DNA of 64,000 bases. It comes from an uncultured Clostridia bacterium (GTDB taxonomy: Bacteria > Bacillota > Clostridia > Christensenellales > UBA3700). The notes below the pieces were generated by a model, which saw only the letters and a list, made by a program, of their open reading frames with translations, ran no database searches and had not been told where the DNA came from. Numbering within the stretch: the first letter of the stretch is position 1; each line of letters begins with the position of its first letter. Location: positions 6,353-70,352 of the forward strand of contig CAMQSU010000005.1 of NCBI GenBank assembly GCA_947037025.1, given 5' to 3'. The position numbers were made by a program, and so were the translations under genes. Below, piece by piece: positions 4,507 to 61,347 of the stretch.

Positions 4507-5874
4507 ATGTTAAACGATGATAGAATAAATAAAATCGGCAAATCATTTGCAAAATTTGTGTCATTAAATATTCTTAGTATGCTTGCTATGTCATTTTATA
4601 TTTTAGCTGATACAATATTTGTTGCAAACATTCCAGATATAGGAGCGGACTGCTTGACAGCACTGCAATTAGTGCTGCCATTCTTTAGCTTGCTTAATGG
4701 AGTTGGAGTGTTGCTCGGTGTCGGTGGTGCTACACTTTATTCGGTTGCTAAAGGTGCTGGTGATGATGAGCGTGCAAATAGAATATTTACGCAAGTCATG
4801 ATTATCGGCGGTGTGTTAGGTGCATTATTTACTATTTTAGGACTAACGATACCTACTCAAATTGTATCTATGCTAGGCGCTAAAGGTGAGATTGTCGCAC
4901 TTGCGGTAACATACCTAAAGGCTCTGTCTATATGCAATTTGCCATTTGTTGTAAATCATATTATGCTTGCATTTGTCAGAAACGATAACGCACCACGACT
5001 TGCTATGACAGCAGTAGTGGTCAGTAGTCTATTTAATGTACTACTAGATTGGATACTAATATTTCCTTGTGGATTAGGTATTTTTGGTGCAAGTTTTGCG
5101 ACAGGGCTAGCGTCAGTGGTATCACTGATTATTATGTCATGGCACTTTATACGTCGCAAAAATAACTTTAGATTTCAGCGTCCATCATTCCACTTTAAAG
5201 ATATAAGGTTCACGCTTGCAGCGGGATTTCCATCAATGCTAGCAGAGCTTTCTAACGGAATAGTAATATTGGTATTTAATATGCTTATCTTAAAAATAGG
5301 CGGAGAAAACGGTGGCATTGCAATAAACGCATATAGCGTGACAGCTAATTTAGCATTGATTGCTATGTTTACATTTAACGGAATTTCTCAAGGAACGCAA
5401 CCGCTATTTAGTATCAATTATGGTGCAGGAAAGAAAGATAATATAAGGAAAATTATGCTATATGGGTGTGCAACTGCATTAGGAATGGCAACATTGTACT
5501 ATGTGTCGTTTTTCCTTGGTCGTGATGGATTAATCAAGCTGTTTAACAATGCTGGGTCTGTTGAGATGGCAGAGATTGCAAGAGAGGCGATAGTCTTATA
5601 TAACATCGCATATTTTGCAGCAGCACTTAATATAGTGGCAACAGCTTTATTTGCTACTAACGGTAAGCCGATGTTTAGCTTCATAATATCTATACTTCGA
5701 GGTTTAGCATTGCCGCTTGGTTTAGCGTTCCTATTATCAAGCACGTTAGAGCTAAAAGGGATTTGGCTTACAATGCCGATTGCAGAGTTTATAACACTAT
5801 TTGTATCTATAATATTACTTGTAATTCATCAATTAAAAGATAGGAAAGATAGGAGGGTAGAATGTCAAGATTAA
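4507..5874 (+). CDS. MATE family efflux transporter
   Basis: The 455-aa product has about 12 hydrophobic segments and the N-terminal pattern FVSLNILSMLAMSFYILADTIFVA typical of MATE/NorM-like pumps. No strong SD is visible before the ATG. Confidence 0.85.
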   Translation: MLNDDRINKIGKSFAKFVSLNILSMLAMSFYILADTIFVANIPDIGADCLTALQLVLPFFSLLNGVGVLLGVGGATLYSVAKGAGDDERANRIFTQVMIIGGVLGALFTILGLTIPTQIVSMLGAKGEIVALAVTYLKALSICNLPFVVNHIMLAFVRNDNAPRLAMTAVVVSSLFNVLLDWILIFPCGLGIFGASFATGLASVVSLIIMSWHFIRRKNNFRFQRPSFHFKDIRFTLAAGFPSMLAELSNGIVILVFNMLILKIGGENGGIAINAYSVTANLALIAMFTFNGISQGTQPLFSINYGAGKKDNIRKIMLYGCATALGMATLYYVSFFLGRDGLIKLFNNAGSVEMAEIAREAIVLYNIAYFAAALNIVATALFATNGKPMFSFIISILRGLALPLGLAFLLSSTLELKGIWLTMPIAEFITLFVSIILLVIHQLKDRKDRRVECQD

Positions 5875-6518
5875 ATATTGTTAATGGTATGGCAATGCTA
5901 AGCTATATTAAGGAATTTAAGATAGATTTAGGTGGAGATGTAGTTCCATTTAATGAGTGTATGTGCGAAGGATTTGTGACAGCGGACATATTTGGGGCGG
6001 AGTTTGAGCTTGCAAGATGTACAACTCACGGAGTAGGAATTGAGGAATATGAAGATATTGTCATCAATTATTTGCACCCGTTATTTTCGGAAGATTATGA
6101 CGAGCTACACTTGTTTTTCGACGAGGATATGTTCTGTCAAATCAACCTAATAACATTGCTTGCATACCTTGATATGACTGAATATGAAGGTAAGATAGCG
6201 CTTCATATAATAGATAACTCATTTGCTGAGTTAAATGTAGTTGAATTAAAATCTCAAAGCTTTTTTGTTGTATACAAACAGTTATTAATTGAAAAAAAAG
6301 TCCCAGAAATTGTTTTACCAGAATTAATGTCTGATGCGGTAATAAAATATTTGGATTACTCTAGTGACAATAGCGAAATCGTTCAATATATACTAGAAAA
6401 TATTGATGTTGATGAGAATACATTGCTAGATATGCTTTTTTCTAGGTTTGGCAGTTACGGCTTAGGTGACACACAACTTCAAAAGCAAATAGACTTAGTT
6501 AAAAATAGAAATTGGTAA
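5862..6518 (+). CDS. hypothetical acidic protein, possibly DUF1835-like
   Basis: This 218-aa ORF overlaps the MATE gene's 3' end by 13 nt. The blocks LNIVNG near the N-terminus and LHLFFDEDMFCQINLITLLAYL resemble the DUF1835 pattern. This is a by-eye call only. Confidence 0.45.
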   Translation: MSRLNIVNGMAMLSYIKEFKIDLGGDVVPFNECMCEGFVTADIFGAEFELARCTTHGVGIEEYEDIVINYLHPLFSEDYDELHLFFDEDMFCQINLITLLAYLDMTEYEGKIALHIIDNSFAELNVVELKSQSFFVVYKQLLIEKKVPEIVLPELMSDAVIKYLDYSSDNSEIVQYILENIDVDENTLLDMLFSRFGSYGLGDTQLQKQIDLVKNRNW

Positions 6519-6813
6519 ATTGTTAAATATCAAAATAAGTTGAATATTTAGTTCAATTTTTAACTTATTTTCAAATAAGTTTATATAAAACTGACAACAT
6601 TACATGTTATGCGTCATTAAACGCCAAATACTTACTGTCGAAATATGATATAATCTGGATAATTAGTGGTTATATTAAACATAATTTTTGAATAAATTGA
6701 CACTAATAATAGAATGAAATAGCAAATATTTTCATTTATTGACATATTATGACGTTAATTATTGGAGTTTTACAAAAATTATATTTATTTTTTAATAAAA
6801 ACAAATAAAAACC

Positions 6814-6841
6814 TTGCATTCTCGCCAAAATATGTTATAAT
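6814..6841 (+). promoter_or_regulatory. extended -10 promoter of spo0A
   Basis: TTGCAT (6814-6819), 16-nt spacer, TGtTATAAT (6833-6841). An AGGGGG RBS precedes the ATG at 6873. Confidence 0.5.
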
Positions 6842-6872: not shown

Positions 6873-7691
6873 ATGAGCAAAATCAAATTATTAATCGTAG
6901 ATTGTGATGTTGAAAATGGTGGACGTAGTGCAAAAGAATTAAGTAGTGATTTTATTGAAGTAATCGGTATTGCTACTGATGGTCAAGAATGTCTTGAGAT
7001 GATGAAGACGCGTGATATTGATGTAATATTGACTGAGTTAGTTCTTCCAATGTATGACGGATATGCGATTCTTGAAGCTGCAGCAGCAGGCGTGGACATG
7101 CCAAAGATTCCAAAGATTTTTGTTATGTCTAAGCTTATGGGTGAGGGGTATATTAATAAGGCTATGAAATTAGGTGCTTCTTATTATTTCTTTAAGCCTT
7201 GTAATTATTCGTATGTTAGCACTATTATGAAAAATGCAATGGAAAAAGATCCGTTTGCTGAGTATTTAAATGAAGGACAAGGCGATGTAAAAGGTTCATT
7301 AGGCGTTGAGGGCATGAAGACTATGAATACTCGTAATCATCACCCAATAGAGGAGAAAATAGCTAAAATATTTATCTCTGTTGGCATACCAGCACACATA
7401 AAAGGCTATCAATTTTTGAGGTCTGCAATCAAGCTTGTAGTAGCAAAACCGGAGATGATTAACAGCATCACAAAGCAGTTATATCCTGGTGTTGCAGAAA
7501 TATATAATACTAGCGCAAGCAAAGTTGAAAGGGCAATCAGACACGCAATAGAAGTTGCTTGGAATAGAGGAAAATTAGATAATATTAACAGGCTTTTTGG
7601 CTTCAAGATTTATAGTGCAAACGAGAAACCTACTAACGGTGAGTTTATAGCATTAGTAGCGGATAAACTAATGGTAGATAGTACATATTGA
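6873..7691 (+). CDS. spo0A: sporulation master regulator Spo0A (atypical receiver domain)
   Basis: The C-terminal domain carries the Spo0A-specific blocks GIPAHIKGYQFLRSAI, SKVERAIRHAIEVAWNRG and KPTNGEFIALVADKL. The N-terminal CheY-like receiver has Glu55 at the phospho-acceptor position (see findings). Confidence 0.9.
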   Translation: MSKIKLLIVDCDVENGGRSAKELSSDFIEVIGIATDGQECLEMMKTRDIDVILTELVLPMYDGYAILEAAAAGVDMPKIPKIFVMSKLMGEGYINKAMKLGASYYFFKPCNYSYVSTIMKNAMEKDPFAEYLNEGQGDVKGSLGVEGMKTMNTRNHHPIEEKIAKIFISVGIPAHIKGYQFLRSAIKLVVAKPEMINSITKQLYPGVAEIYNTSASKVERAIRHAIEVAWNRGKLDNINRLFGFKIYSANEKPTNGEFIALVADKLMVDSTY

Positions 7692-8056: not shown

Positions 8057-8641
8057 ATGCCAATTTACAGAAAGTGTCCTAGATGCGAGTTGAATTACAT
8101 TTTGCACGAAAAAGATTATTGTGATGTTTGCCTTTTGGAATTAAAGGGCGTTGATATTCACGCTGCTGATGTTGATGATTCGCTATGTCCAGGGTGTCAT
8201 GAAATTTATCTTGAACCGGGCGAAGTGATGTGTTCTGCCTGTGCGCTAAAAGCACGCGGAGCTAAAGCAAAGGCAGAAGTGGAAGAGGACGAAGTGGAGC
8301 CAGGAAGCCGCCTTGCGAATATGACTGAGGAAGAGGATTGGGATGCTGATGCAGATTCGACTTTTGATACACCATCAGTCATTGATGATACTGAATCCTT
8401 CGTTGATGACGGCGACTATGAAGACGAAGATTATGAAGACGAAGATTATGATGAAGAAGCTAATGAAATCCTTGAAGAAGGCGCAGTAGTAGAAGTCGAT
8501 GATTTTGAGGAAGTGTTACTAGGTCTTGATGACTTAGATGATGATGACTTAGACGATGATGATTTTGACGAAGATGAGCTTGAAATGGATTTAGATGATT
8601 TAGGCAGTGAGCTTGGATTAGATGAGGAAGATTACAAATAA
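8057..8641 (+). CDS. double zinc-ribbon protein with long polyacidic C-terminal tail
   Basis: The 194-aa product has two CxxC-x11-CxxC units (C7/C10/C22/C25 and C44/C47/C59/C62) followed by about 120 residues dominated by D/E. A GGAGGG RBS is present and a strong terminator lies downstream. Confidence 0.6.
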   Translation: MPIYRKCPRCELNYILHEKDYCDVCLLELKGVDIHAADVDDSLCPGCHEIYLEPGEVMCSACALKARGAKAKAEVEEDEVEPGSRLANMTEEEDWDADADSTFDTPSVIDDTESFVDDGDYEDEDYEDEDYDEEANEILEEGAVVEVDDFEEVLLGLDDLDDDDLDDDDFDEDELEMDLDDLGSELGLDEEDYK

Positions 8642-10911: not shown

Positions 10912-11198
10912 CATGGTATGTTTTCTATTTGTAGGCAAGTTGCGATTTATTATTTATTAACGTTGCTGATTATCGGCAAAAAGTCACTTATTATACAAAT
11001 TAACCAAACAGCGTATAATGATACATGTCAGACGGTTTATTTTCAAAGCATTACCACTTAATGCAAAATAGTGACCACATAACGCAAGCCTATTGACAAA
11101 TATTGAATATCATGATACTTTAGAAGTATATATATAAATGTCAAATTATGTCGAATACAGCTGCAAAAAACCTAAAAGCAAAACATATGGAGGAAAAT

Positions 11199-13157
11199 AT
11201 GAGATTATCAAAGATTTTTAAGTCAATATTTATTACATTTGTAATAGTAATGTTAGGCTGCGTGGGCTTAGTTGCTTGTGCACAGCCTGTGCGAGAAAAT
11301 ATTACTATTACATTCTTGGCTAATTGTGATGATGGTGCTTTCGCATTTCAAGAAACCAATGGTATAGATTTTAGATTGGATTACAATCAGTTTGTAAGGG
11401 ATGGATATGCCTTTAAGGGATGGAACTCATCAATAGCAAATGCAAATTTAGGCAAAGTCGAATATGAGGACACTGTCTATTGTTATATGGATGCAGATGT
11501 AACATTATTTGCAGTGTGGGAAAAGATTGAGGCATTAGAGTATTCGTTTAATCAATTTTCAAAGACAGCAAAAATAACAGAAGCATCAAAATCTATCAAA
11601 AAGATTTCTGTTCCTACAACTGTTAAGGATGAATTAGGTGTCACTTATACTGTTACGAGTATAGGTGATGAAGCATTTATGTTGAATTATGCATTGGAAA
11701 CATTGATATTTGAAGAAGATAGTCAGCTAAAGTCAATCGGCAATAATGCATTTTATCAATGCGGAAGTTTGAAGGTTTTAAGATTGCCAAATTCGATTGT
11801 AAGTATAGGAAATAGTGCATTTAGTGGCTGTCGCGAACTTGTAAGGATGACTATACCTTATGGTGTTAAAGAGATCAATAACGGTGTTTTTTTTGAATGT
11901 AATAGTCTTTCAAGTATAATAATATCTAACAGCGTGACAGCAATTGGCGATAGTGCATTTCAGTATTGCACGGCACTAAAAGAGATAATAATACCTGACA
12001 GCGTGATAGCAATTGACTACAATGCATTTCGGGATTGCACGGCACTGGAAAATATAATAATACCTGACAGCGTGATAGCAATTGGCTACAATGCATTTCG
12101 GGATTGCACGGCACTGGAAAATATAATAATGCCTAATAGCCTGAAAGCAATTGAAGATACTACATTTCAGGGTTGCGTAGCACTAACAGAAATAACAATC
12201 CCGAATACAGTGACAACAATTGGTTCGAATGCCTTTAATGATTGCAGCGAACTAATAAGTATAACAATCCCAAATAGTGTAGCTAGTCTAAAAATAGATG
12301 ACTATAGAAGGTCATTATTTGATGGCTGTATCAAGCTTGAAGCTATAAATGTAGACGAAGGAAATCTTAATTATTCAAGTATCGATGGCGTACTATTTAA
12401 TAAAAATAAAGAAATTTTAGTCTCTTATCCGCAAGGAAAGCTTAGCGTAAATTATGTTGTACCTAGTAGTACGGAAACGATCAAAATGTTTGCATTTTCT
12501 GGCAACACCGGACTTAGACATATAAAAACGCCTAGTACTCTTAAGTATATTCAAAGTTATGCATTTGCAGACTGTCTATTACTTTATGAAGTAATAATAG
12601 CAGAGGGTTTGTTAAGTTTAGGAGACAATATTTTTGACGGCTGCATCGAACTTACAAGTATATCACTTCCTGCTACTCTTAAGTATATTCAAAGTTATGC
12701 ATTTGCAGGATGCACTAAATTGGAGGGCATACATGTCGCAGAAGGCAATTCGAAATATGCAAGCATAGATGGTGTACTATTTAATCACGATAAAACGGAG
12801 TTAATCACTTATCCACAAGGCAAAAAAACGAGCACTTATGTTGTTCCAAATAGTGTGATAAAAATTAGAAAAAATGCATTTTCCAAATGCGACTTAGTGA
12901 CTAAAATTGTTTTTCAAGATGGAGGGACAACAATTGATTCAAACGCTTTCAATGGTTGCACTGGTTTAACTAGTATAATTATACCGGCAAGTGTGACTTA
13001 TATAGGAGAATACGCATTCAAGGGTTGTGATAGCATGAACAATATCTATATGGTAAAAGAAAACAGCAATGGGATGATATTGGAAAATGGATGGAATGAT
13101 TATAGTGAATACGAAGACGGAGGAAGGATTGATGTTACGTGGGGCTATAAAGCATAA
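11199..13157 (+). CDS. surface lipoprotein with Listeria-Bacteroides repeat and BspA-type leucine-rich repeats (copy 1)
   Basis: The signal peptide ends in the lipobox LVAC. A GYAFKGWN Flg_new-type module follows, then many roughly 23-aa repeats of the form I.IP.SV..IG..AF..C..L. I set the start at the ATG at 11199, behind GGAGGAAAAT. Confidence 0.8.
   Translation: MRLSKIFKSIFITFVIVMLGCVGLVACAQPVRENITITFLANCDDGAFAFQETNGIDFRLDYNQFVRDGYAFKGWNSSIANANLGKVEYEDTVYCYMDADVTLFAVWEKIEALEYSFNQFSKTAKITEASKSIKKISVPTTVKDELGVTYTVTSIGDEAFMLNYALETLIFEEDSQLKSIGNNAFYQCGSLKVLRLPNSIVSIGNSAFSGCRELVRMTIPYGVKEINNGVFFECNSLSSIIISNSVTAIGDSAFQYCTALKEIIIPDSVIAIDYNAFRDCTALENIIIPDSVIAIGYNAFRDCTALENIIMPNSLKAIEDTTFQGCVALTEITIPNTVTTIGSNAFNDCSELISITIPNSVASLKIDDYRRSLFDGCIKLEAINVDEGNLNYSSIDGVLFNKNKEILVSYPQGKLSVNYVVPSSTETIKMFAFSGNTGLRHIKTPSTLKYIQSYAFADCLLLYEVIIAEGLLSLGDNIFDGCIELTSISLPATLKYIQSYAFAGCTKLEGIHVAEGNSKYASIDGVLFNHDKTELITYPQGKKTSTYVVPNSVIKIRKNAFSKCDLVTKIVFQDGGTTIDSNAFNGCTGLTSIIIPASVTYIGEYAFKGCDSMNNIYMVKENSNGMILENGWNDYSEYEDGGRIDVTWGYKA
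11985..12122 (+). repeat. near-perfect 69-bp tandem duplication inside LRR gene 1
   Basis: Two adjacent 69-bp units differ at one base (gactac versus ggctac). They encode IIIPDSVIAI(D/G)YNAFRDCTALEN twice. Confidence 0.9.
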
Positions 13158-13250
13158 AAGATATTTACTAGCAGTTTAGTAAATTAATAAAAAAATGAAA
13201 ACAAGATTTTTAGCTTTTTATTGCAAAAAGCTACTGATAAGGAGGAAAAT

Positions 13251-15197
13251 ATGCGTAGATCTAAAGTGATTAAAATATTATTTATCGGATTAATGACTGT
13301 TTTGTTATGCTGTGCCTGTTTGGTAGCATGTTCAGGACAGGTCACTACTTATACAATTACATTTATGGCTAATGGTGGTGAGGGCACTGTTGAACCGCAA
13401 GTGGCAGAAGGCTCTATACGCTTGAACGTAAATGTATTCGAAAACGACGGGTATGCTTTTATGGGGTGGAATACATCAGAAGAAAATGCGAATTTGAACA
13501 TAGTACAATATGAGGACAATGCCAATGTTATTACAGATAAAGATCTAACATTACATGCAGTGTGGGAAGAAATTGTAGCGTTAGAGTATTCGTTTAACCT
13601 AGAGTCAAAGACAGCTAGGATAACTTCAGCATCAAACCTTATCAAAAACATTTCTGTTCCTACAACTGTTAAGGACAGTTCTGGTGTTGACTATACTGTT
13701 ACAAGTATAGAGGATAAAGTGTTTTATGAAAATGCTAAATTACAGTCATTGGTATTTGAAGAAGATAGTCAGTTAAAGTCAATTGGAAACAATGCATTTG
13801 GGTCATGTGTAAATTTGACAAGCATTGATATTCCTAAAAACGTAAGGGAGATAGGCGATCAAGCATTTAATAGATGTTATGGTCTTACCAGCATAACACT
13901 ACCTACAAGTATGTCAAATATTGGGGACAGTGCATTTTTCGAATGTACTTCGCTTGCAAGTATAACTTTTCCTAACGATATGAGTGTAATTAGCAGATTC
14001 TTATTTTATGGTTGCAGCAAACTTACATCTATAGTGATTTCTGATGATGTGAGAACAATTGGCGACAGTGCATTTAATGGTTGTGGCTTTGAAAGTATAG
14101 TGATTCCTAGTGGTGTAACCAATATCGAGAAATATTATGCTAATACTTCTATATTTGAAAATTGCATTAACCTTGAGAGTATAAATGTCGAGAAAGACAA
14201 TCCCAATTATTCAAGTATCGATGGTGTGCTATTTAATAAAAGTAAAGATACTTTAATCGCATATCCATTTGGGAAGCATATTGATAACTATGTTATACCT
14301 AATAATGTTATTAATATCGAATGGAATTCATTTTATGGTATCAACGTGGTAAAAACCGTGACAATTCCAGCTAGTCTTACAGTAATTACAGCGTCTGGGT
14401 TTTCTCATTTCACAGGACTTACTAGTATAATAATACCCAATACGGTGAAAACAATTGAATCTTATGCATTTTCAGGTTGCATCGGACTTACTAGTATAAC
14501 AATACCCGATAGTGTGACATCAGTTGAATATCATGCATTTACTAACTGCACCGGACTAACTAGCGTTAAAATGTCAAAGAGTGTTTTAAGTATTGAACGT
14601 TATACATTTTATGAGTGCAGTGCGCTAACAGATATCATAATACCTGATGGTGTAAGGACAATTGAAGATGGTGGATTTTTAGGTTGCACAAGACTTGAGA
14701 CTGTAATAATACCTGATAGTGTGAGCTATATTGACCGTGGTGCATTTTTCTTATGCGCTTCGCTTACAAGTATAAAAGTGGATAGTGGCAATCCAAATTA
14801 TGCAAGTATAGATGGAGTATTATTTGATGATGAAAAAAAGAACTTAATAGAATATCCTAGTGGAAAATCAAATGATACATATATTATTCCATCGGGTGTG
14901 AAAACAATTGGATCTTCTGCATTTAATGATTGCACAAGCCTAACTAGTATAACAATAGCCGATAGTGTAACAAGTATCGAAGATTCTGCATTTAGGGACT
15001 GCACAGCCCTTACTAGCATAACAATACCAAGTAGCGTGACAAGTATCGGAGATGATGCATTTTGGGGTTGCAATAACTTATCTAATATATATATGATTAG
15101 AGAGAGTAGTGAAGGTATGAAATTATCTGATGATTGGAATAGTTATAAACGGGGTGAAGGCGGAGTGATTAACACTGTATGGGGATATAAAGGATAA
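13251..15197 (+). CDS. surface lipoprotein with Listeria-Bacteroides repeat and BspA-type leucine-rich repeats (copy 2)
   Basis: This is a paralogue of the upstream gene. It has the same AGGAGGAAAATATG start context, LVAC lipobox, GYAFMGWN module, shared block ALEYSFN...ISVPTTVKD...EEDSQLKSIGNNAF, and C-terminal WGYK(A/G). Confidence 0.8.
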   Translation: MRRSKVIKILFIGLMTVLLCCACLVACSGQVTTYTITFMANGGEGTVEPQVAEGSIRLNVNVFENDGYAFMGWNTSEENANLNIVQYEDNANVITDKDLTLHAVWEEIVALEYSFNLESKTARITSASNLIKNISVPTTVKDSSGVDYTVTSIEDKVFYENAKLQSLVFEEDSQLKSIGNNAFGSCVNLTSIDIPKNVREIGDQAFNRCYGLTSITLPTSMSNIGDSAFFECTSLASITFPNDMSVISRFLFYGCSKLTSIVISDDVRTIGDSAFNGCGFESIVIPSGVTNIEKYYANTSIFENCINLESINVEKDNPNYSSIDGVLFNKSKDTLIAYPFGKHIDNYVIPNNVINIEWNSFYGINVVKTVTIPASLTVITASGFSHFTGLTSIIIPNTVKTIESYAFSGCIGLTSITIPDSVTSVEYHAFTNCTGLTSVKMSKSVLSIERYTFYECSALTDIIIPDGVRTIEDGGFLGCTRLETVIIPDSVSYIDRGAFFLCASLTSIKVDSGNPNYASIDGVLFDDEKKNLIEYPSGKSNDTYIIPSGVKTIGSSAFNDCTSLTSITIADSVTSIEDSAFRDCTALTSITIPSSVTSIGDDAFWGCNNLSNIYMIRESSEGMKLSDDWNSYKRGEGGVINTVWGYKG

Positions 15198-16464: not shown

Positions 16465-16638
16465 ATGAAACATATTAACACTATTGTAGCATCTGGAATG
16501 AAGAAAACAGGAAACATCGGATGTGGTGAATGTCAGTCAAGTTGTCAGTCTGCATGTAAGACAAGCTGTACTGTTGGAAACCAGTCATGCAAGCACCAAG
16601 GCGAGAGAGTAAACACTACTGCTAAACCACTTATCTAA
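16465..16638 (+). CDS. scfA: SCIFF six-cysteine ranthipeptide precursor
   Basis: The core GCGECQSSCQSACKTSCTVGNQSC is the hallmark SCIFF motif. I set the start at the ATG at 16465, 10 nt after GGAGG (16450-16454). The stop overlaps the maturase ATG (TAATG). Confidence 0.9.
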   Translation: MKHINTIVASGMKKTGNIGCGECQSSCQSACKTSCTVGNQSCKHQGERVNTTAKPLI

Positions 16639-17996
16639 TGATACATTCATTTAGATACAATCATAAAGGTAGAGATTTACATTTCATCTTTGATGTTGAG
16701 AGCGGTAGCCTGCATAATGTTGATAGGTCTTGCTATATCATTTCTAAGAGTTTGTACGGAAAGCTAGATTCGGCTGAAAAGTCAGAGCTAGATGGCATGG
16801 ACAAACAGCTTATATGTGAGATTACAGCGGAGCTTAAACAGCTTGAGGGCGAGGGCGGTATTAACTGCGCTAACTATTGCGACTCAGGAGATAAGCAGAT
16901 AGGCGAGATTAAAGCGTTATGCTTACATATCTGTCATGACTGCAACCTTCGATGCAAATATTGTTTTGCTGATGAAGGTACATATCATTCAAAGATACGT
17001 GAGTATATGTCATTTGAAGTAGGACAAAAAGCAATCGATTTCCTTATCGCAAATAGCGGCAAGCGAAAGAGTTTAGAAGTTGACTTTTTTGGCGGCGAGC
17101 CGCTAATGAATTTAGGTGTTGTTAAAAGCATTGTCGAGTATGCAAAAGCTGAAGCTAGCAAGCATGGCAAAGAGTTTAACTTCACAATGACAACTAATTG
17201 CGTGCTACTGACTGACGAAAATATTAAATGGCTTAATGAGGAAATGTATAACGTTGTATTATCTATAGACGGGCGTGAGCTCGTGCATGATAACTTAAGG
17301 CGAACAATCAATGGCAAAGGCTCGCAGTCTTTAGTCCTTGCAAATGCTAAAAAGTTTCGTGAAGTTAGAGGTGATAAGTCATATTATGTGAGAGGTACAT
17401 TTACCGCACATAACTTGGACTTTGCAGCCGATGTGCTTTACCTTAGAGATCAAGGTTTTGACCAAATAAGTGTTGAGCCAGTAGTGTTGCCAGAGGATAG
17501 TCCAATGGCACTAAGGGCAGAGCATTTACCTGCAATTGCTAAGGAATACGAAAAGTTAGCGGCGGAGTATCTTGAGTCAAGAAGTCATGGCAAGTGGTTC
17601 AATTTTTTCCACTTCATGATGGATCTTGATGGTGGGCCGTGCGTGAAGAAACGTATTACAGGCTGCGGGGCTGGATGTGAGTATCTATCAGTTACTCCAT
17701 ACGGCGATATCTATCCTTGTCATCAGTTCTCTGAGGAGAAAGGTTACAAGCTAGGTAGTGTGGTTACGGGCGAGTTCGGATTAGATATTTCTAAAAAGTT
17801 CGCTAAAAATACAGTCTTTAACAAACCTGACTGCATGGTCTGTCCTGCTAAATATTATTGCAGTGGCGGTTGCTGTGCTAACAACACTCACTTCGTGGGT
17901 GATATGTCAAACCCTTATGCGATTAGTTGTGAAATGATGAGGAAACGATTCGAACTATCACTAGCTATTGCAGGAATTGAACGCAGTTTAGTTTAA
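16638..17996 (+). CDS. scfB: radical SAM/SPASM thioether-forming SCIFF maturase
   Basis: The 452-aa product has the CHDCNLRCKYC radical-SAM CxxxCxxC motif and C-terminal SPASM cysteine clusters (CGAGCEYLSV...YPCHQF and CMVCPAKYYCSGGCCANN). It lies immediately downstream of the SCIFF peptide gene. Confidence 0.9.
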   Translation: MIHSFRYNHKGRDLHFIFDVESGSLHNVDRSCYIISKSLYGKLDSAEKSELDGMDKQLICEITAELKQLEGEGGINCANYCDSGDKQIGEIKALCLHICHDCNLRCKYCFADEGTYHSKIREYMSFEVGQKAIDFLIANSGKRKSLEVDFFGGEPLMNLGVVKSIVEYAKAEASKHGKEFNFTMTTNCVLLTDENIKWLNEEMYNVVLSIDGRELVHDNLRRTINGKGSQSLVLANAKKFREVRGDKSYYVRGTFTAHNLDFAADVLYLRDQGFDQISVEPVVLPEDSPMALRAEHLPAIAKEYEKLAAEYLESRSHGKWFNFFHFMMDLDGGPCVKKRITGCGAGCEYLSVTPYGDIYPCHQFSEEKGYKLGSVVTGEFGLDISKKFAKNTVFNKPDCMVCPAKYYCSGGCCANNTHFVGDMSNPYAISCEMMRKRFELSLAIAGIERSLV

Positions 17997-48581: not shown

Positions 48582-49517
48582 ATGTCTAAAAAGAATAATT
48601 ATGAAGAAAAAGATGTAAAAGCAAAAATTGATTCATTTATGCCAGATAAGGCAACTGATGATCCAAAGCAGATACTTAAAAGTGACAAAAAGATATTTAG
48701 TTCAGTATTTATTTCGATAATAACATTAATGATTATCGGGTGGTTTATCAGCGTCATAATCGGGTTTGTAGAAGGCCCTGTGGAGGGTGTGAGAGCGCTC
48801 TTTATTGGAAGTATAGCAACAAGCGTAATATTGTTGCTAACAACGTTAATTATATCAATGGCGCACAATATGTCAAGAACTACAAAAGCGACGATGATAA
48901 TGTGTCAAAAGATATTAGAGTATGAGGAAGAAGATAAAAAGAAGTTAAGTGAAAATGCTGATATAAATAATGCTAGCGAAGTAATGAGTAACGCATCAAA
49001 TTCACCAATAAATAAAGTTATTAATGCAAGCAATAATAACTTGCAAAACCAAAATAATACAATGTCAAATAATGCAAATCAACAAATGGATAATAATCAA
49101 AATATGAATAATAACCAAAACAACACAATGTCAAATAATGCAAATCAACAAATGGATAATAACCAAAACATGAATAATAATCAAAACAACACAAGTCAAA
49201 ATTTCGACAACCAAAGCTATCAAAACCCAGCAAGCGAAAATTTTGAAAATGGAAATATGACAAATGAAAACAACAACAATTTGCCGGAAAATTATATAAA
49301 TGAAAATAACGTTAATAATAGTTATAGTAGTCAAAATCAGGGCGAAGATTGTAACAATTATGATCAAAATTATAACTATTCAGATTATAATCAAGGGGAG
49401 TATCGTGGCGATTACAATGGCTATGAGCAAGCTAGCGGCGAGCAGTATAATAATGAGCATCAAGAAGAAAACGGCAATAATTATAGAGTAAACAATAATA
49501 ATCAAGAAAGAAACTAA
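48582..49517 (+). CDS. membrane protein with long Asn/Gln-rich low-complexity C-terminal domain
   Basis: A GGAGG RBS is present. The product has two hydrophobic helices (IFSSVFISIITLMIIGWFISVIIGFV and ALFIGSIATSVILLLTTLIISMA) followed by about 190 residues dominated by N and Q. Confidence 0.6.
   Translation: MSKKNNYEEKDVKAKIDSFMPDKATDDPKQILKSDKKIFSSVFISIITLMIIGWFISVIIGFVEGPVEGVRALFIGSIATSVILLLTTLIISMAHNMSRTTKATMIMCQKILEYEEEDKKKLSENADINNASEVMSNASNSPINKVINASNNNLQNQNNTMSNNANQQMDNNQNMNNNQNNTMSNNANQQMDNNQNMNNNQNNTSQNFDNQSYQNPASENFENGNMTNENNNNLPENYINENNVNNSYSSQNQGEDCNNYDQNYNYSDYNQGEYRGDYNGYEQASGEQYNNEHQEENGNNYRVNNNNQERN
49059..49202 (+). repeat. 66-bp tandem repeat (two full units plus a partial third)
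   Basis: Units start at 49059 and 49125 (acaatgtcaaataatgcaaatcaacaaatggataataa...), each encoding TMSNNANQQMDNNQNMNNNQNN. A partial third copy starts at 49191. Confidence 0.85.
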
Positions 49518-49855: not shown

Positions 49856-52800
49856 ATGTCGAATATTCACAAAGTTAATTATGGTAACGTAGAGAGAAAG
49901 TCTTTTAGCAAAGTAGCTGAAACTCTTGAAATACCGTATTTTATCGCTTTGCAAAAGGATTCTTACAAAGATTTCATTGAGCATGGTATCAAGAAAGTCC
50001 TAAAGGATTCTTCTCCTATTTGCGATCACGCAGGTAGGATGGAACTTCATTTCTTAGACTCATATTTTGAGGATAAGCCAAAATACTCTATCAAAGAGTG
50101 CAAGGACAGAGACGCAACTTATGCGGTGCCTCTGAAAGTGAAAGTTCGTCTTATTAAAAAAGACGCGGATAATAACCCAGTAATCACTGATACTGAAGTG
50201 TTTATGGGCGATTTCCCTCTAATGACTGATAGCGGATCATTTATCATCAATGGTGCGGAGCGAGTAATCGTATCGCAGCTAGTTCGTTCACCAGGTATTT
50301 ACTGCGGTAAGTCTGTTGACAAGAATGGTATTGATAGATTTGAGACAACAGTTATACCTAGCCGTGGAGCATGGCTTGAATTTAAGCAAGATGTTAATGA
50401 CATTTTATACGTATCTGTTGACAGAAAGCGTAAGATGCCAGCGACTACTCTTATGCGTGCTCTGGGATTCGGAACTAACAGTGACCTAATTGAGTTATTT
50501 GGTGAGAGCCCAATGCTTGCCGCAACAATCAAGAAAGACTCGACTAACGGATGTGATGACGCTAAAATTGAGCTTTACAAAAAGCTAAAGACTGGCGAGG
50601 TTGCAACTATAGAGGGTATTAATACACTAATCAACAACACTCTTTACGATCCAAAAAGATATGACACTCAACGTGTAGGTAGATACAAGTTTAACAGAAA
50701 GCTTAGTATTGCAGCACGAATTACAGGATACACTGCAGCGGCTGATGTTATCAGTCCTGACGGTGAGATTTTCGCATCAAAAGGCGATGTAATCCTAGCA
50801 GAAGTTGCAAAGAATATCCAGAATGCAGCAATCAACGAAGTATTACTAGTTAATGCAAACGGTGATGGCGGAACTACAAAGATAATCGGTAACAAGAATG
50901 TTGATATCGAGGCTTTTGTTGGCGTTAGCCGAGATGAGCTTGGAATCAACGAGATGGTTTACTACCCAGTACTAGAGCAGCTTATGAAAGACTTCTCTGG
51001 TGATGAGCTTATCGAGCAAATAAAGTTAAACGCTAAAAACTTAGTGGTATTGCATGTAACACTTGATGATGTTATTGCAACAATGTGTTATAGTTTATCA
51101 CATAACTTCGGCTTCGGAACTGTAGACAATATCGATCACTTAGCAAACAGACGTGTACGTGCTGTCGGCGAGCTTTTGAGAAACCAATTACGTATCGGAC
51201 TTGTTAGACTTGACAAGGTTATTAAAGAGCGTATGAGTGTTACTCAAGATGATGGCGAGCAAACTGCACAATCTTACATAAACATTAAACCTGTGACAAG
51301 CGTAATCAAGGAGTTCTTCTGTTCTTCTCAGCTATCACAGTTCATGGATCACCATAACCCAATCGCGGAGCTAGCTCATAAGAGAAGGCTTTCAGCACTA
51401 GGACCTGGTGGACTTAACAGAGAGTGTGCGGGTTTCGAAGTTCGTGACGTGCATCACTCACACTATGGTAGAATGTGTCCGATAGAAACTCCCGAGGGAC
51501 AGAACATCGGATTGATATCTTCACTTGCAACATTTGCACGTGTAAACGAATACGGATTTATCGAGGCGCCTTACCGCAAAGTTGATAAGTCTAACGAAGA
51601 TAAGCACATCGTAACTCATGATGTACATTATTTGCAAGCTGATGAAGAGGATAAATACGTAATAGCACAAGCAAGTGTTGCGCTAAATCCGGATGGTTCT
51701 TTTGCAAGCAAGCGTGCGGTATGCCGTATCCGTGAGGATATCCGTGAAACTGAAAGTTCTAGAGTTGATTATATCGACGTTAGTCCAAAGCAGTTGGTAT
51801 CAGTAGCAGCAGCGCTTATCCCATTCCTTGAGAATGACGATACATCACGTGCACTGATGGGTTCAAACATGCAGAGGCAGGCAGTGCCTCTAATCAAAAC
51901 AGATTCACCAATTATAGGTACTGGTATTGAGCACCGTATCGCACTTGATAGTGGCGCATGTCATGTATCAAAGCGTGATGGTGAAGTAAGTTATGTTGAT
52001 GGAACTCGCATCGTTGTCACTGGTGATGATGGTATTAATGATGAGTTTATCATGCGTAAGTTTGAGCGTTCAAATCAAAGCACATGCGTAAATCAACGCC
52101 CAATAGTTAATGTTGGACAACGAGTTAGCCGTGGCGAGATAATCGCTGATGGTCCAGCAACTTCTAAGGGAGAGCTAGCACTAGGTAAAAACATTCTTAT
52201 CGGCTTCATGTCATGGGAAGGTTACAACTATGAGGATGCGATTCTAATTAGTGAGGACTTAGTTAAAGATGATATATTCACTTCAATCCATATTGAGGAG
52301 TATGTAATCGAATCTCGTGATAGCAGATTAGGTGCGGAGCAAATCACTCGTGATATCCCTAACTTAAGTGATGATATGATTAAAAACCTTGATGAGGAAG
52401 GAATTATCCAAGTGGGTAGTGAAGTTCGCTCACAAGATATATTAGTTGGTAAAGTTACACCAAAGGGCGAGGCGGATCCTACTCCAGAGGAGAGGTTACT
52501 TCGTGCAATGTTCGGTGAGAAATCTCGTGATGTTCGCGATACTTCTCTAAGACTTGATAACGGACAACATGGCGTAGTAGTAGATGTTAAAGTCTTTACT
52601 CGTGCAAATAAAGATGAGTTATCTCCAGGCGTTAAAATGAAAGTTGTAGTATACGTTGCACAAAAACGTAAGCTAGGCGTAGGAGATAAGATGGCGGGTC
52701 GTCACGGAAATAAGGGTGTAGTATCAAGGGTTTTACCTAAAGAAGATATGCCATTTATGGAAGACGGAACACCACTTCAAATAGTTCTTAATCCACTAGG

Positions 52801-53746
52801 AGTTCCTTCACGTATGAATATCGGACAGGTACTTGAGGTGCATTTGGGTTATGTTGCTAAGCTACTTGGCTGGAAGATTGAAACTCCAGTATTTGATGGC
52901 GCATCAGAGCATGACATTAAAGAATTACTTGAGGAAAACAGCCTTGACGTTGACGGAAAGCTACAGCTTTACGATGGAAGAACAGGCGAAAAATTTGAAA
53001 ACCGCGTAACAGTAGGTTACATGTATATGCTAAAACTTATCCATCTAGTTGATGATAAAATCCATGCACGTGCAACAGGTTCATACTCACTAATCACTCA
53101 ACAACCACTAGGCGGAAAAGCCCAGTTCGGTGGACAGAGATTCGGAGAGATGGAGGTTTGGGCACTAGAGGCATACGGTGCATCACGTATCTTGCAGGAG
53201 ATTCTGACAGTTAAGTCGGATGACGTTGAAGGTAGAACTAATATTTATAACGCAATCGTTAGCGGAAATCCTATCTGTGAGCCAGGAATACCTGAGTCTT
53301 TCAAGGTACTTATCCGTGAGTTCAGGTCACTATGTCTTGATGTTCGTGCTCTTAACGAGAACCGCGATGAAATCAGCCTAGATACATATAGCGCTAAGCT
53401 AAATATGCGTCAAGAAGTTGATAATCGTGAGCTTAAAGAGGTTTCAATCGGCTTTGCTGAAGGAAGTGAGGAGCTTGACATATTCGGTAGCGACGTTTCT
53501 GATGACTTTGCGTCAATGGGAGACGATGCCGCAGATGAGGATATCTTCGGTTTCACAATGGAATCAGACGAAGCAGATGATAGTGATTTTGATGGTAGCG
53601 AGTTGTTCGACATTGGTTCAAGCGATGACGCTTCAGCTAATGACGAAGCTGCTGAGAATGATGATATCTTCGGTATCAATGATACTGAAACTGATACTGA
53701 TGCTAGCGCTGAGTTAGTTATCAATTTAGACTCAGATAATGAGTAA
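49856..53746 (+). CDS. rpoB: DNA-directed RNA polymerase subunit beta (with 121-aa acidic C-terminal tail)
   Basis: The 1296-aa product has canonical blocks throughout, for example [50 protein letters not shown] and [18 protein letters not shown]. Confidence 0.97.
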
Positions 53747-53760
53747 TTGGAGGTTAAGTA

Positions 53761-56700
53761 ATGTTCGAGTTAAATAACTTTAGTTCAATACAAATAGGTG
53801 TAGCCTCTCCAGAGAAAATTCGTGAGTGGTCTAAGGGCGAAGTAGTTAATGGCGAAACTATTAATTACAGAACTCAAAAACCTGAAAAAGGCGGTCTTTT
53901 CTGTGAGATTATCTTCGGACCTATCCGCAGTGGCGAGTGTAGTTGCGGCAGATACAAAAAGAAGTATACAGGCACAGTCTGTGATAAATGTGGCGTTCTA
54001 GTTACTGATAGTAAAGTACGTCGTGAGCGTATGGGACATATCGAGCTAGCTGCACCAGTATCACATATTTGGTACTATAAAGGTGCACCTAGTGCAATCG
54101 CAATGTGTCTTGACGTAGCCGTTAAAGAGCTTGACGATGTATTATATCTTAATAAATTTATCGTAATTGATCCAGGTAAAACTGAGTTTACATATAAGCA
54201 AGTAATCAACGATGAGCTATACCGTGAGGCGGTAGCAGAGTATGGCCGTAACAGCTTTAAGGCTGCTATGGGAGCTGCCGCAGTTAAAGAGCTTTTAGCT
54301 GTAATCGACCTTGATGCAGAGTCAGAAAAGTTGAAGAAAAATGTTGCTGTTTTTGAAGGTGCGAAAAAGCTTAAAGCTGCTAAAAGACTTGATTTTATCG
54401 AGTCATTTAGACTAAGCGGAAACCGCCCTGAGTGGATGGTACTTGATGTAATTCCAGTAATCCCACCAGAAATCAGACCAATGGTACCACTAGATGGTGG
54501 TAGATATGCGGCATCTGATCTTAACGATTTATATCGTAGAGTAATCAACCGTAACAAACGTTTGAAAAAGCATATCGAGCAGGGCGCTCCAGATCTAGTT
54601 GTTCGTAACGAGAAAAGAATGCTTCAAGAAGCAGTCGATGCGTTATTTGATAATGGCCGTCGCGGCAAAGCAACTACAGGTCCAGGTGGGCGTGAGCTTA
54701 AATCATTAACAGGCATGCTAAAAGGTAAACAAGGACGTTTCCGTCAAAACCTTTTAGGTAAGCGTGTTGATTATTCAGGCCGTTCTGTTATCGTCGTTGG
54801 TCCAGAGCTTAAAATGTATCAATGTGGACTACCTAAGGAGATGGCTTTAGAGCTTTTCAAACCTTTCGTAATCAAAAAATTAGTAGAGTACAATCACTGC
54901 GCAAACATCCGTGTTGCTCGTAAATTCGTTATGAAAGCGACAACAGCAGTATGGAATATTTTAGAGGACGTAATCAAGGACCATCCAGTTCTTTTAAACC
55001 GTGCTCCGACTTTGCATAGACTTGGTATCCAAGCCTTTGAACCTATCCTTGTAGAAGGTCGTGCTATTAAACTTCATCCACTTGCTTGTGGTGCGTTCAA
55101 TGCCGATTTCGATGGAGATCAAATGGCGGTACATGTACCACTAAGTTTAGAGGCACAAGCTGAGGCAAGATTCCTAATGCTTGCAACAAACAATATCCTA
55201 AAACTTTCTGATGGTAATCCTATCGTTGCCCCTTCACAGGATATGGTAATAGGAGCATACTACTTATCTATTGACAGAAATGCACTAGTTAAGAAAGAGG
55301 ATAATACTATTGAGGAAGTTGAGGCAAGTCAGTATTTTGCACGTATCAAAGAGGGCGAAAATTTAAAGCTTAGAGCTTTCAAAAGTTTTAACGAAGCATT
55401 GATGGCATATCAGCTAAAAGAAATTGGTCTTCAAGATATCGTTTCAATCCGTCGTGAGATGAATGTTGAAATTGATGTATACGGAACAAAAATCAACAAG
55501 CTTTATTCAAAAAATATTATCTCAACAGTAGGTAGATTTATCTTTAACGAAGCGATTCCACAGGATTTAGCATTCACTAAGAGATATGATCAAAATAAGG
55601 ATATCTGTACGGACGAGACAAGCAGCGATTATAACAATCCGCTACTTAACTTAGACCTTGAGATAGACTTCCTTGTAGGCAAAAATCAGCTATCAAGAAT
55701 AGTTGAAAATTGTTTCAAATACAAGGGCGCTACAGAAACTGCAACAGTACTAGATAAAATCAAATCATTAGGATTCAAGTATTCAACTATCGGTGCAATA
55801 ACAACATCAGTATTTGATATGCACATTCCAGATGAGAAGTATGTTATCGTTGCTGATGCGGAGAAGAAAATTCTTGAAATCGAGAAGAAGCACCGTCGTG
55901 GTCTTCTAACTGAGAATGATAGATATAATCAAGTAATTGATACATGGACAAAGGCAAAGGACGAGGTTAATAACCTGCTAGAAGGCGGCGCATTAGGCAA
56001 GTTCAACCCAATATACATGATGGCGGATTCTGGTGCCCGTGGTAGCATGAGACAGATAGCGCAGTTATGTGGTATGCGTGGACTAGTAGCAAATACAGCA
56101 GGTAAAACAGTAGAGCTTCCAATCAAGTCAAACTACCGTGAGGGATTATCAGTACTAGAGTACTTTACATCTTCGCATGGTGGACGAAAAGGTCTTGCGG
56201 ATACAGCACTAAAAACAGCGAACTCAGGATACCTAACACGTAGATTAGTTGACGTTGCACAAGATTGTATTATTAATGAAGAAGATTGTTTAGATACAAA
56301 GGGCTTTATCGTTACTGCAATAATGGCAGCCGATAGTAGCAAGCCACTTGAGCCTATCAATGACAGAATCAGAGGTCGTATATGTATGGATGATATCGTA
56401 CACCCAGAAACGGGCGAGATAATTATCCCAGCAAATAGCATGCTTACTAAAGATGAAGCAATAGAAGTTGAGGCTGCAGGCGTTAAGTCAGTACGTATCA
56501 GAAGTATGCTATCATGTAGATCAAAGCACGGCGTATGTGCAAAGTGTTATGGTGCTAATATGGCATCAAACAACATTGTTAAAATCGGTGAGGCCGTCGG
56601 CGTAATCGCAGCACAGTCAATCGGTGAGCCAGGAACTCAGCTTACAATGAGAACGTTCCATACCGGTGGTATCGCAACAGCTGATGATATTACACAAGGT

Positions 56701-57621
56701 CTACCACGTGTCGAGGAGCTTTTTGAGGTTCGCCGTCCAGGTGGAGAGGCAATACTATCAGAGATTGATGGTAGCGTATATCATGACAAAGAGAAACGAG
56801 TTATCACTATTACTATGAGTAATGGCGAAACTAAAGAATACAAGTATAATCACGGCCAAAAAGTTACTGTTGAAAATGGTGACAAGGTCGAAGCGGGCAC
56901 ACCACTTACAAAAGGTAGTGTATTCCCACAAGATATGCTAAGAACTCGTGGAGTTAAGGGTGTTCAGGACTACCTAATTAAGGAAGTTCAGTCAGCATAC
57001 CGTACATCAGGTGTTCAAATCAATGATAAGCATACAGAGATTATCATTCGTCAAATGCTAAGAAAAGTTCGTATAGAAACTCAGGGCGACACTGATATGT
57101 TGACTGGTGATTTATACAATATCTTCAAATATGAGGATAACAATGAAAAAGCTCTTGTAGCTGGTGGCGCGCCAGCAACGGCTAAGCGTACACTACTAGG
57201 AATTACTAAAGCATCACTTGCTACAGATTCATTCCTATCAGCAGCATCATTCCAGGAAACTGCAAAGGTTCTAACGAATGCGGCTATCAAAAACAAGACA
57301 GATTACCTTGTAGGACTAAAAGAGAATGTACTACTAGGCAAAGTTATCCCAGCAGGAACTGGTATGAAATGTTACCAAAATGTAGATGCAACTTTTGTTG
57401 ATGGTCTTGACCTTAACATTAATGAGTCTGATGAGTACATTGATTATGAGGGACTAGATTTGGAGCAAGGCGAAACTTCACAAGAAGATGTAGCAAGCTA
57501 TATTAAAGAGATGGGCGACATAGAAACTTCAGCATTTGCAGGTTTAACTGTTGCAGAAGAGGAAAAAGCCGTTACTTCTTTAGATGAATTATTCTCATTC
57601 GGAAACAAAGAAAAAGAGTAA
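53761..57621 (+). CDS. rpoC: DNA-directed RNA polymerase subunit beta-prime (with 78-aa acidic C-terminal tail)
   Basis: The 1286-aa product has the zinc-binding CSCGRYKK...CDKCGV block, the catalytic [12 protein letters not shown] block, and the trigger-loop region [16 protein letters not shown]. Confidence 0.97.
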
Positions 57622-57734: not shown

Positions 57735-57838
57735 AAATCTATTGTGAGTTACAGGAGGGATCGGACCCGTTAATTGTACAGCAACCGACTTTGTGAGGTG
57801 CTAATTTCCGCAAGATTAAATCTTGGAAGATAGAGTGA
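57735..57838 (+). promoter_or_regulatory. SAM-I (S-box) riboswitch aptamer
   Basis: The conserved S-box blocks are present in order: TCTAT..GAG...GGAGGGA.CGGACCCG.....CAGCAACC......GGTGCTAATTTCCGCA......GAAGATAGA. The aptamer lies upstream of metK. Confidence 0.85.
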
Positions 57839-61306: not shown

Positions 61307-61347
61307 TTAAAAAAACAATAAAAAACATGCAAATATTAGGAGATTTT

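Follow-up and report, generated by a model that had tools for sequence, protein, structure and literature searches.

Phosphorylation of an aspartate in the response regulator Spo0A is the textbook decision point of endospore formation, at which the phosphorelay of Bacillus and the orphan kinases of clostridia converge. In Bacillus subtilis Spo0A the phosphorylatable residue is Asp56, at the end of strand β3, and the constitutive B. subtilis alleles sad67 and sof show that changes in the receiver can give activity that is independent of phosphorylation. Here we describe a spo0A gene in a 64,000-nucleotide stretch of contig CAMQSU010000005.1 from an uncultured Clostridia bacterium (the whole stretch is referred to as the window). 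The gene lies at 6873..7691 on the plus strand, as do all of its domains and codons given below, and its product carries a glutamate, Glu55, where the phosphorylated aspartate is expected.

Among natural regulators, HP1043 and GlnR are atypical response regulators. RitR and FrzS are treated as further aspartate-less or atypical ones in the main text of a survey of aspartate-less receivers (PMC4395418), which also describes ChxR of Chlamydia as having Glu at the acceptor position and binding DNA constitutively. By the counts given in that text, Glu is the commonest replacement of the acceptor (26%), the first acidic residue of the pocket (acidic-1) is kept in 65% of such receivers, the second (acidic-2) in 29% and the lysine in 70% (PMC4395418). 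Spo0A enters the main text of the survey only as an engineered Asp-to-Glu mutant.

The open reading frame encodes 272 amino acids plus a stop codon and is a full-length Spo0A orthologue by hidden Markov model score, architecture, fold and locus. The protein scores 229.5 bits over residues 3-269 against the NCBIfam Spo0A equivalog TIGR02875, above the curated cut-off of 200 bits, and matches Pfam Response_reg (PF00072) at residues 7-112 with 43 bits and Spo0A_C (PF08769) at residues 163-266 with 138.5 bits, so that the output domain is intact. A first-pass annotation of this DNA had assigned the C-terminal domain to Spo0A from the motifs HIKGY, SKVERAIRHAIEVAWNRG and KPTNGEFIA; all three are present in the translation, and the Spo0A_C and TIGR02875 matches agree with the assignment. 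This DNA-binding and transcription-activation domain (residues 163-266; 7359..7670), recognized by PF08769, phmmer and Foldseek, includes the recognition helix 'SKVERAIRHAIEVAW' at 7518-7562. It is 54-56% identical to solved Spo0A structures, with a phmmer E value of ~1e-36 against 1fc3/1lq1, and superposes on them with a template modelling (TM) score of 0.87-0.92. The receiver (REC) domain (residues 1-125; 6873..7247) has the canonical (βα)5 fold without the acceptor Asp, and the interdomain linker (residues 134-156; 7272..7340) is of low confidence, with a predicted local distance difference test score (pLDDT) below 50.

Glu55, encoded by GAG at 7035-7037, lies at the position of the phosphorylated Asp in every alignment made and, as modelled, at the end of β3. 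In phmmer searches against PDB chains, 'DVILTELVLPMYDG' of the window protein is aligned to 'DVLVLDIIMPHLDG' of B. subtilis Spo0A-N (9phz) and also to 'DILLLDIIMPHLDG' of the 1dz3/1qmp chain, where Glu55 corresponds to chain residue 55 when counted along the alignment; the title of PDB entry 1qmp states that the phosphorylated aspartate is shown. An alignment of ~190 homologues likewise puts Glu55 at this position. In an AlphaFold2 model built from 70 homologues (mean pLDDT 88, receiver ~97) the strands span residues 4-9 (β1), 28-34, 51-54 (β3), 81-86 (β4) and 104-107 (β5), and because of these positions Asp10, Glu55, Ser86 and Lys108 are predicted to sit at C-terminal strand ends, where they would form the receiver pocket. 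Foldseek places the modelled receiver on 1qmp_B with a TM score of 0.92 and a root mean square deviation of 1.2 Å, and the output domain on DNA-bound 1lq1_D with a TM score of 0.92. Asp48 and Asp50 were considered as alternative acceptors and rejected, since both fall at the N-terminal end of β3 in the phmmer alignments and in the model; no other Asp could be aligned at the acceptor position by either route.

The rest of the pocket was read in the same way. The codons of the β1-α1 loop specify Asp10 (GAT, 6900-02), Cys11 (TGT, 6903-05) and Asp12 (GAT, 6906-08), which the phmmer alignment pairs with Asp10, Asp11 and Asn12 of B. subtilis. Thr54 (ACT) directly precedes Glu55 (the two codons occupy 7032..7037), β4 ends in the conserved Ser/Thr, here Ser86 (7128..7130), and the β5 segment 'YYFFK' (7182..7196) supplies Tyr104, Tyr105 at the aromatic switch position and the pocket lysine, Lys108 (AAG, 7194-96). 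The first-pass annotation had read the acceptor as Glu55, the N-terminal pair as Asp10-Cys11 and the lysine as retained, and the codons, alignments and model bear out these three readings. Of the usual pocket residues only Asp10, Ser86 and Lys108 remain, the acceptor being Glu and acidic-2 being Cys; with neither the acceptor Asp nor the Asp-Asp metal site, this is not the pocket of a canonical two-component response regulator. A REC fold with a non-Asp acceptor, in which the substitution is fixed and not sporadic, is what characterizes aspartate-less receivers, and by its pocket chemistry the window Spo0A appears to belong functionally with them. In receivers, Ser/Thr86, Tyr105 and Lys108 couple the pocket to the α4-β5-α5 face, and all three are retained in the proteins with Glu at the acceptor (Glu-type, as opposed to Asp-type).

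The substitution had been presented as an oddity of a single gene; instead, Glu is fixed across a whole clade and loss of the Asp recurs in related lineages. Among the best 120 database clusters, 22 have Glu in a 'TEL' motif and one has Ser, and several of the clade clusters are abundant, single members occurring on 114, 121 and 325 contigs (hundreds overall). When 20 clade members with 47-74% identity to the window protein are aligned, the columns of Glu55, Asp10, Asp12, Tyr104, Phe106 and Lys108 are invariant, whereas position 11 varies between C, S, G and Y, for which reason a Cys11 redox switch was rejected as a general mechanism. Position 86 is Ser or Thr in all Glu-type hits, and Thr54, just before Glu55, is found in 91% of the clade. 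The Glu codon in the other Glu-type loci with available DNA is GAA in 11 and GAG in 6; since both are used though Asp is only one transversion away, Glu has been maintained through synonymous change.

A change from Asp (GAY) to Glu (GAR) needs a single base, and the Glu could in principle reflect a mistake in sequencing or assembly at 7035-7037, or a receiver that has lost its function and is drifting. The identical protein, however, is found on four contigs in at least two different ENA assemblies (including ERZ4740425 and ERZ28620936), Glu is invariant in the clade down to 47% identity, and the reading frame is intact. The independent contigs and the clade-wide Glu exclude an error at this codon. 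Drift is opposed by the receiver's nonsynonymous divergence (dN), which is 0.20 from the nearest relative at saturated synonymous sites (dS) and so gives only a bound on dN/dS, and by a rate of receiver evolution no faster than in Asp-type lineages. Receiver identity, taken relative to that of the C-terminal domain, equals or exceeds that of Asp-type pairs: where C-terminal domains are 80-90% identical, receiver identity is 59% for pairs from the Glu clade vs 36% for Asp-type pairs. We regard the chance of an artefact or decaying pseudogene as negligible, and as far as sequence data can tell it is excluded.

The clade has, moreover, its own receiver signature, consisting of Asp12, Ala34, Cys40, Leu53, Thr54, Glu55, Leu56, Tyr64, Phe83, Met85, Glu91 and Phe106, and it has changed Leu115, Arg118 and in part Gly101-Ala102 although these are conserved in Asp-type proteins. 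Dozens of columns in the output domain are invariant across Asp and non-Asp forms. These patterns indicate that the receiver is not decaying and that its fold, the remaining pocket and the DNA-binding domain are under purifying selection.

In neighbour-joining trees of 126 taxa (100 bootstrap replicates, pocket columns excluded) the non-Asp clade of the window, comprising at least 22 sequence clusters, is monophyletic in 95 of 100 replicates, and in all 100 it forms a monophyletic group with a small sister that has the canonical Asp-Asp...Asp pocket (P0008, P0019, P0020, P0022 and P0027). One Asp-type sister locus, L088, has the gene order DUF2238, MatE, a 215-aa gene, spo0A and a gene for an acidic zinc-ribbon protein, and the same order is found in the window and in the related loci L082, L083 and L085. 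The locus is shared with a canonical Asp-type sister, which argues that the window gene is the organism's orthologous spo0A and not an extra, paralogous copy, and that the Asp-to-Glu change arose in place, at the ancestral spo0A locus. A check for a second, canonical spo0A in the 64-kb window and ~13 kb of flanks found no other receiver or Spo0A_C domain encoded there.

Loss of the acceptor Asp extends beyond this clade. When one genome per GTDB species was scanned, at least 80 spo0A loci were recovered and, among the matches listed, at least 16 more are Glu-type (L013, L014, L021, L026, L027, L030, L031, L033, L037, L039, L048, L051, L058, L061, L065 and L067), while the acceptor is Gly in L045, Asn in L075 ('uncultured Christensenella sp.') and Ser in L077 ('Candidatus Gallimonas intestinavium'). 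Within the window's own clade, P0018 combines a Ser acceptor with Glu at position 10, and in several of these homologues the first acidic residue is likewise replaced, by Gln or Glu. Further non-Asp pockets include Gln-Asp-Thr ... Glu, seen in metagenome-assembled genomes (MAGs) with the label Christensenellaceae, and, in a separate group, Asp-x-x ... 'MEV'. The other non-Asp lineages join the window's clade in none of the 100 bootstraps, and parsimony on the gene tree counts 5-9 changes between Asp and non-Asp (median 7). In further lineages of MAGs with the label Clostridia or Christensenellaceae, then, Glu, Gly, Asn or Ser has independently taken the place of the Asp.

The degenerate acidic pair has a different distribution. 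The first-pass annotation had noted it alongside the Glu, and Cys11 is indeed real, but a non-acidic position 11 is not specific to Glu forms: many related Asp-type Spo0As already lack the usual second acidic residue (Asp-Asn, Asp-Cys, Asp-Glu or Asp-Ser), and since these Asp-type relatives show it too, the degeneracy is best seen as a trait of the wider group. The relatives listed are uncultured MAGs labelled Clostridia, Christensenellaceae, Christensenella and Oscillospiraceae, several of them from the guts of animals or humans (goat, sheep, roe deer, yak, horse and Hadza); the window itself has a G+C content of 36.7%.

What these proteins do with a glutamate can be addressed by a model, which we consider probable though well short of certain, of an aspartate-less Spo0A that is independent of phosphotransfer and controlled by its expression level and/or by protein partners. 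Activation by a kinase or phosphorelay is not expected because both the acceptor Asp and the second metal-binding Asp are replaced; as the Asp is missing and the metal site incomplete, Spo0A would no longer be activated by His-to-Asp phosphotransfer. The Glu55 carboxylate would reach toward Ser86 and Lys108, and the remodelled receiver may be permanently in or near the activated, dimerization-competent state, or may act as a docking module. Spo0A output would then be set by the amount of protein, through an autoregulated promoter, and/or by binding partners, rather than by kinases. The partial phosphomimicry and kinase independence suggested in the first-pass annotation can, by analogy with other regulators, reasonably be inferred.

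The region upstream of spo0A may provide for autoregulation. A perfect 0A box, TGTCGAA (6636-6642), stands directly upstream of and abuts an extended -10 element, TGATATAAT (6646-6654), and the combined motif 'TGTCGAAAnATGATATAAT' (6636..6654) is conserved in a 74%-identical relative, L082. Some 95 nt downstream of the perfect box are degenerate tandem 0A-like boxes, ATTGACA-tat-TATGACG (6738..6754), which align with perfect tandem boxes in L082 (TTCGACAaaaTTCGACA) and L085 (TTCGACAaaaTTTTACA). They are followed by a putative proximal sigma-A-like promoter (6814..6841), a consensus match only, made up of TTGCAT (6814-6819), a 16-nt spacer and a TATAAT preceded by TG (6836-6841). This promoter falls below the rule of at least 9 of 12 hexamer matches used in the promoter scan and was read from the sequence and alignment, its -10 region being conserved in L082 and L085. 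All of these elements are on the plus strand. In the autoregulated spo0A region of B. subtilis a 0A box overlaps the distal promoter and further boxes separate it from the proximal one, a layout that the window's spo0A promoter region resembles by analogy. In the 400 nt upstream of spo0A, perfect 0A boxes average 0.88 across 25 non-Asp loci and 0.70 across 54 Asp loci, against a background of 0.066 per 400 nt, an enrichment of more than 10-fold in the non-Asp loci, to which the window contributes one box.

Possible partners were sought among the flanking genes. Directly after spo0A, at 8057-8641 (plus strand), is the gene for a 194-aa protein whose N-terminal part is a double zinc ribbon ('KCPRCELNYI..YC.VC ... 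LCP.C') and whose tail is ~40% Asp/Glu; it has no above-threshold Pfam match (weak DZR, E 0.009). In 19 related loci, Asp-type and Glu/Gly-type alike, a gene of this kind follows spo0A at a distance of 70-350 nt, with no 0A boxes between the two genes, and its product is a candidate Spo0A-associated factor of the lineage. Upstream, a MatE gene (4507-5874), which confirms the MATE pump of the first-pass annotation, overlaps at its end with a gene of 218 aa (5862-6518, plus strand). The latter had been called DUF1835-like, a label that has to be dropped, as it matches neither DUF1835 nor any other Pfam family even at E<=5; its counterparts are 72% identical in L082 and L083, 59% in L085 and 52% in the Asp-type sister L088. 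A partner specific to Glu-type loci was rejected, since the zinc-ribbon gene and the 218-aa gene also accompany Asp-type spo0A. The absence of spoIVB and recN next to spo0A had also been remarked on. It is true of the locus, and spoIVB is adjacent to spo0A in no non-Asp locus; the significance attached to it does not hold, as spoIVB is also non-adjacent in 37 of the 54 Asp-type loci examined, and the missing adjacency is a lineage effect not tied to Glu.

Several points weigh against a phosphotransfer-independent Spo0A. In B. subtilis Spo0A, replacement of Asp by Glu reportedly did not suffice on its own to make the protein constitutively active (Green et al. 1991, cited in PMC4395418), because of which a simple 'phosphomimic lock' is not guaranteed, and the same source gives CheY and PhoB as likewise insufficient, next to NtrC D54E and others in which an engineered Glu does mimic aspartyl phosphate (PMC4395418). 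The whole-window count of 0A boxes is at chance (7 vs 5.9 expected); it is the placement ahead of spo0A and the enrichment across loci that alone are informative. The trees are neighbour-joining gene trees only, and the invariant Asp10, Asp12, Ser/Thr86 and Lys108 could mean that pocket chemistry or ligand binding persists. As to the failure of single replacements, the extra substitutions fixed in the receiver may be what makes the natural Glu proteins work. The persistence of the pocket bears on two other accounts. In one, the receiver would still be a regulated switch, answering not to an aspartyl phosphate but to a protein or ligand that binds it, or to some other modification, the unliganded receiver inhibiting the output domain. 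Its long-term conservation with a clade-specific signature, the invariance of Asp10, Asp12 and Lys108, and the zinc-ribbon gene directly downstream in 19 loci are in keeping with this, and Glu methylation and Cys-based mechanisms are listed as possibilities for aspartate-less receivers in the survey's text (PMC4395418). The zinc-ribbon gene is, however, also found beside Asp-type spo0A and is not tied to Glu, Cys11 is not conserved within the clade, and no Glu-specific partner was found at these loci, the 218-aa gene too being present in the Asp-type sister; we consider such a signal unlikely. In the other account, phosphorylation would have moved to Glu55 itself (as glutamyl phosphate), to Thr54, or to Asp10 or Asp12. 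There is a precedent in CheY D57N, which can be phosphorylated on the neighbouring Ser56, and here Thr54 directly precedes Glu55 in most of the clade while Asp10, Asp12, Ser/Thr86 and Lys108 are kept. Glu is phosphorylatable in principle, but the survey, as far as its main text goes, knows of no glutamyl-phosphate modification in bacterial signalling (PMC4395418); Thr directly precedes the acceptor in many Asp-type relatives too ('TDI' motifs), and with Ser and Glu10 in P0018 and Gly or Asn in other lineages the pocket chemistry appears dispensable. A relocated phosphorylation site is thus, in our estimate, very improbable.

A further explanation concerns the biological role rather than the mechanism, and is compatible with phospho-independence: Spo0A may have been repurposed after sporulation was lost, being kept for non-sporulation targets, with the kinase input dropped because the developmental decision no longer exists. 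Most Christensenellales MAGs are predicted to be non-sporulating by SpoMAG (PMC12536801), and the nearest named relatives of the window are MAGs labelled Christensenellaceae, Christensenella and Clostridia. Repeated loss of the Asp in related lineages, including to Gly, Asn and Ser, would fit the same idea, as would the absence from the 64 kb of any histidine kinase or other receiver; spoVS, ymxH and dpaAB are likewise missing from the sites in the window where synteny would place them, and the 64 kb with ~13 kb of flanks showed no spoIVB, spoVS or sporulation sigma factors. The non-adjacency of spoIVB in every non-Asp locus points the same way, but loses force given its frequency among Asp-type loci. 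Other genes of the window speak for sporulation. A SPOCS-domain protein with a C-terminal LysM below threshold supports the SipL-like gene reported in the first-pass annotation, and veg and a YlxY/PdaB-like deacetylase are also present, although the label PdaB-like is not sustained by the scores (171 bits vs a cut-off of 237.4 for PdaB; 203 vs 391.5 for YlxY). Moreover, across 1358 gut Firmicutes genomes the presence of spo0A tracked a high sporulation signature in 98.9% (PMC8340488), and by this rule of thumb a retained spo0A favours spore-formers. Weighing these, we see repurposing as a possibility, rather on the unlikely side.

The window has some other features of note. Between the sipL-like gene and ispE are two genes for BspA-type leucine-rich-repeat proteins of 669 and 658 aa (LRR_5; 11148-15197, plus strand), the second also with a Listeria-Bacteroides repeat; in L082/L083 and L085 sipL is followed directly by ispE, and the pair looks like a genome-specific insertion. 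Downstream of ispE, a SCIFF peptide gene (57 aa) and its radical SAM maturase (16465-17996, plus strand) form a pair that is conserved in the loci of relatives. An S-adenosylmethionine (S-box) riboswitch (57736-57836, plus strand, 57.5 bits) is directly upstream of metK (57915-59093). With 513 aa, a ComF-family phosphoribosyltransferase protein (61327-62868, plus strand) is of unusual length; ComF/GntX matches start only at residues 215-247 and leave ~215 N-terminal residues unmatched, and there is a weak double-zinc-ribbon match (DZR_2). The usual order has rplJ-rplL before rpoB. Here rpoB and rpoC (49856-57621, plus strand) are preceded by a 311-aa gene without a family match (48582-49517), and rpsL, rpsG, fusA and tuf come only after metK, recD2, comF, secA, prfB and tsaD, so that the gene order of the region looks rearranged. 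The right-hand extension of the contig holds housekeeping genes only.

A full-text literature search, whose coverage is incomplete, found no description of a natural Spo0A without the acceptor Asp, and such a protein is probably, if not provably, new to the literature. More tentatively, and with rather less than even confidence, we suggest that uncultured gut Clostridia have repeatedly removed phosphorylation control from Spo0A, in at least five independent changes of the Asp, while keeping an intact and constrained protein. A natural, conserved and recurrent Asp-less Spo0A would imply that the decision to sporulate, or whatever Spo0A controls in these bacteria, is taken in another way. If this is so and some of the lineages still sporulate, they would have a previously undescribed, kinase-free sporulation trigger; if they do not, Asp-less Spo0A would mark a reproducible route of rewiring after the loss of sporulation, and surveys of MAGs could not rely on the presence of spo0A to predict spore formation. 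Predictions of sporulation from gut genomes and MAGs make wide use of this gene's presence (PMC8340488, PMC12536801), and Asp-less forms are worth a separate flag in such surveys. The clade also offers a natural test of which receiver changes give phosphorylation-independent Spo0A.

Set beside the described systems, the window protein is like the canonical Spo0A of B. subtilis, Geobacillus stearothermophilus and Clostridioides difficile in its two-domain architecture, its recognition helix 'SKVERAIRHAIEVAW' and its upstream 0A boxes, and unlike it in having Glu for the phosphorylated Asp, Cys for the second metal-binding Asp and Asp for Asn12; the locus also differs from canonical spo0A loci in having neither spoIVB nor recN adjacent. 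Compared with engineered phosphomimics, which are laboratory mutants, the natural clade carries many more fixed substitutions in the receiver. Its pocket is the modal pattern of the aspartate-less receivers tabulated in the survey's text, with Glu at the acceptor, acidic-1 kept, acidic-2 lost and Lys kept (PMC4395418). The known aspartate-less regulators, however, are of the OmpR/PhoB, NarL or other types, unlike Spo0A, and here the aspartate-less state has arisen several times within an otherwise canonical, deeply conserved developmental regulator.

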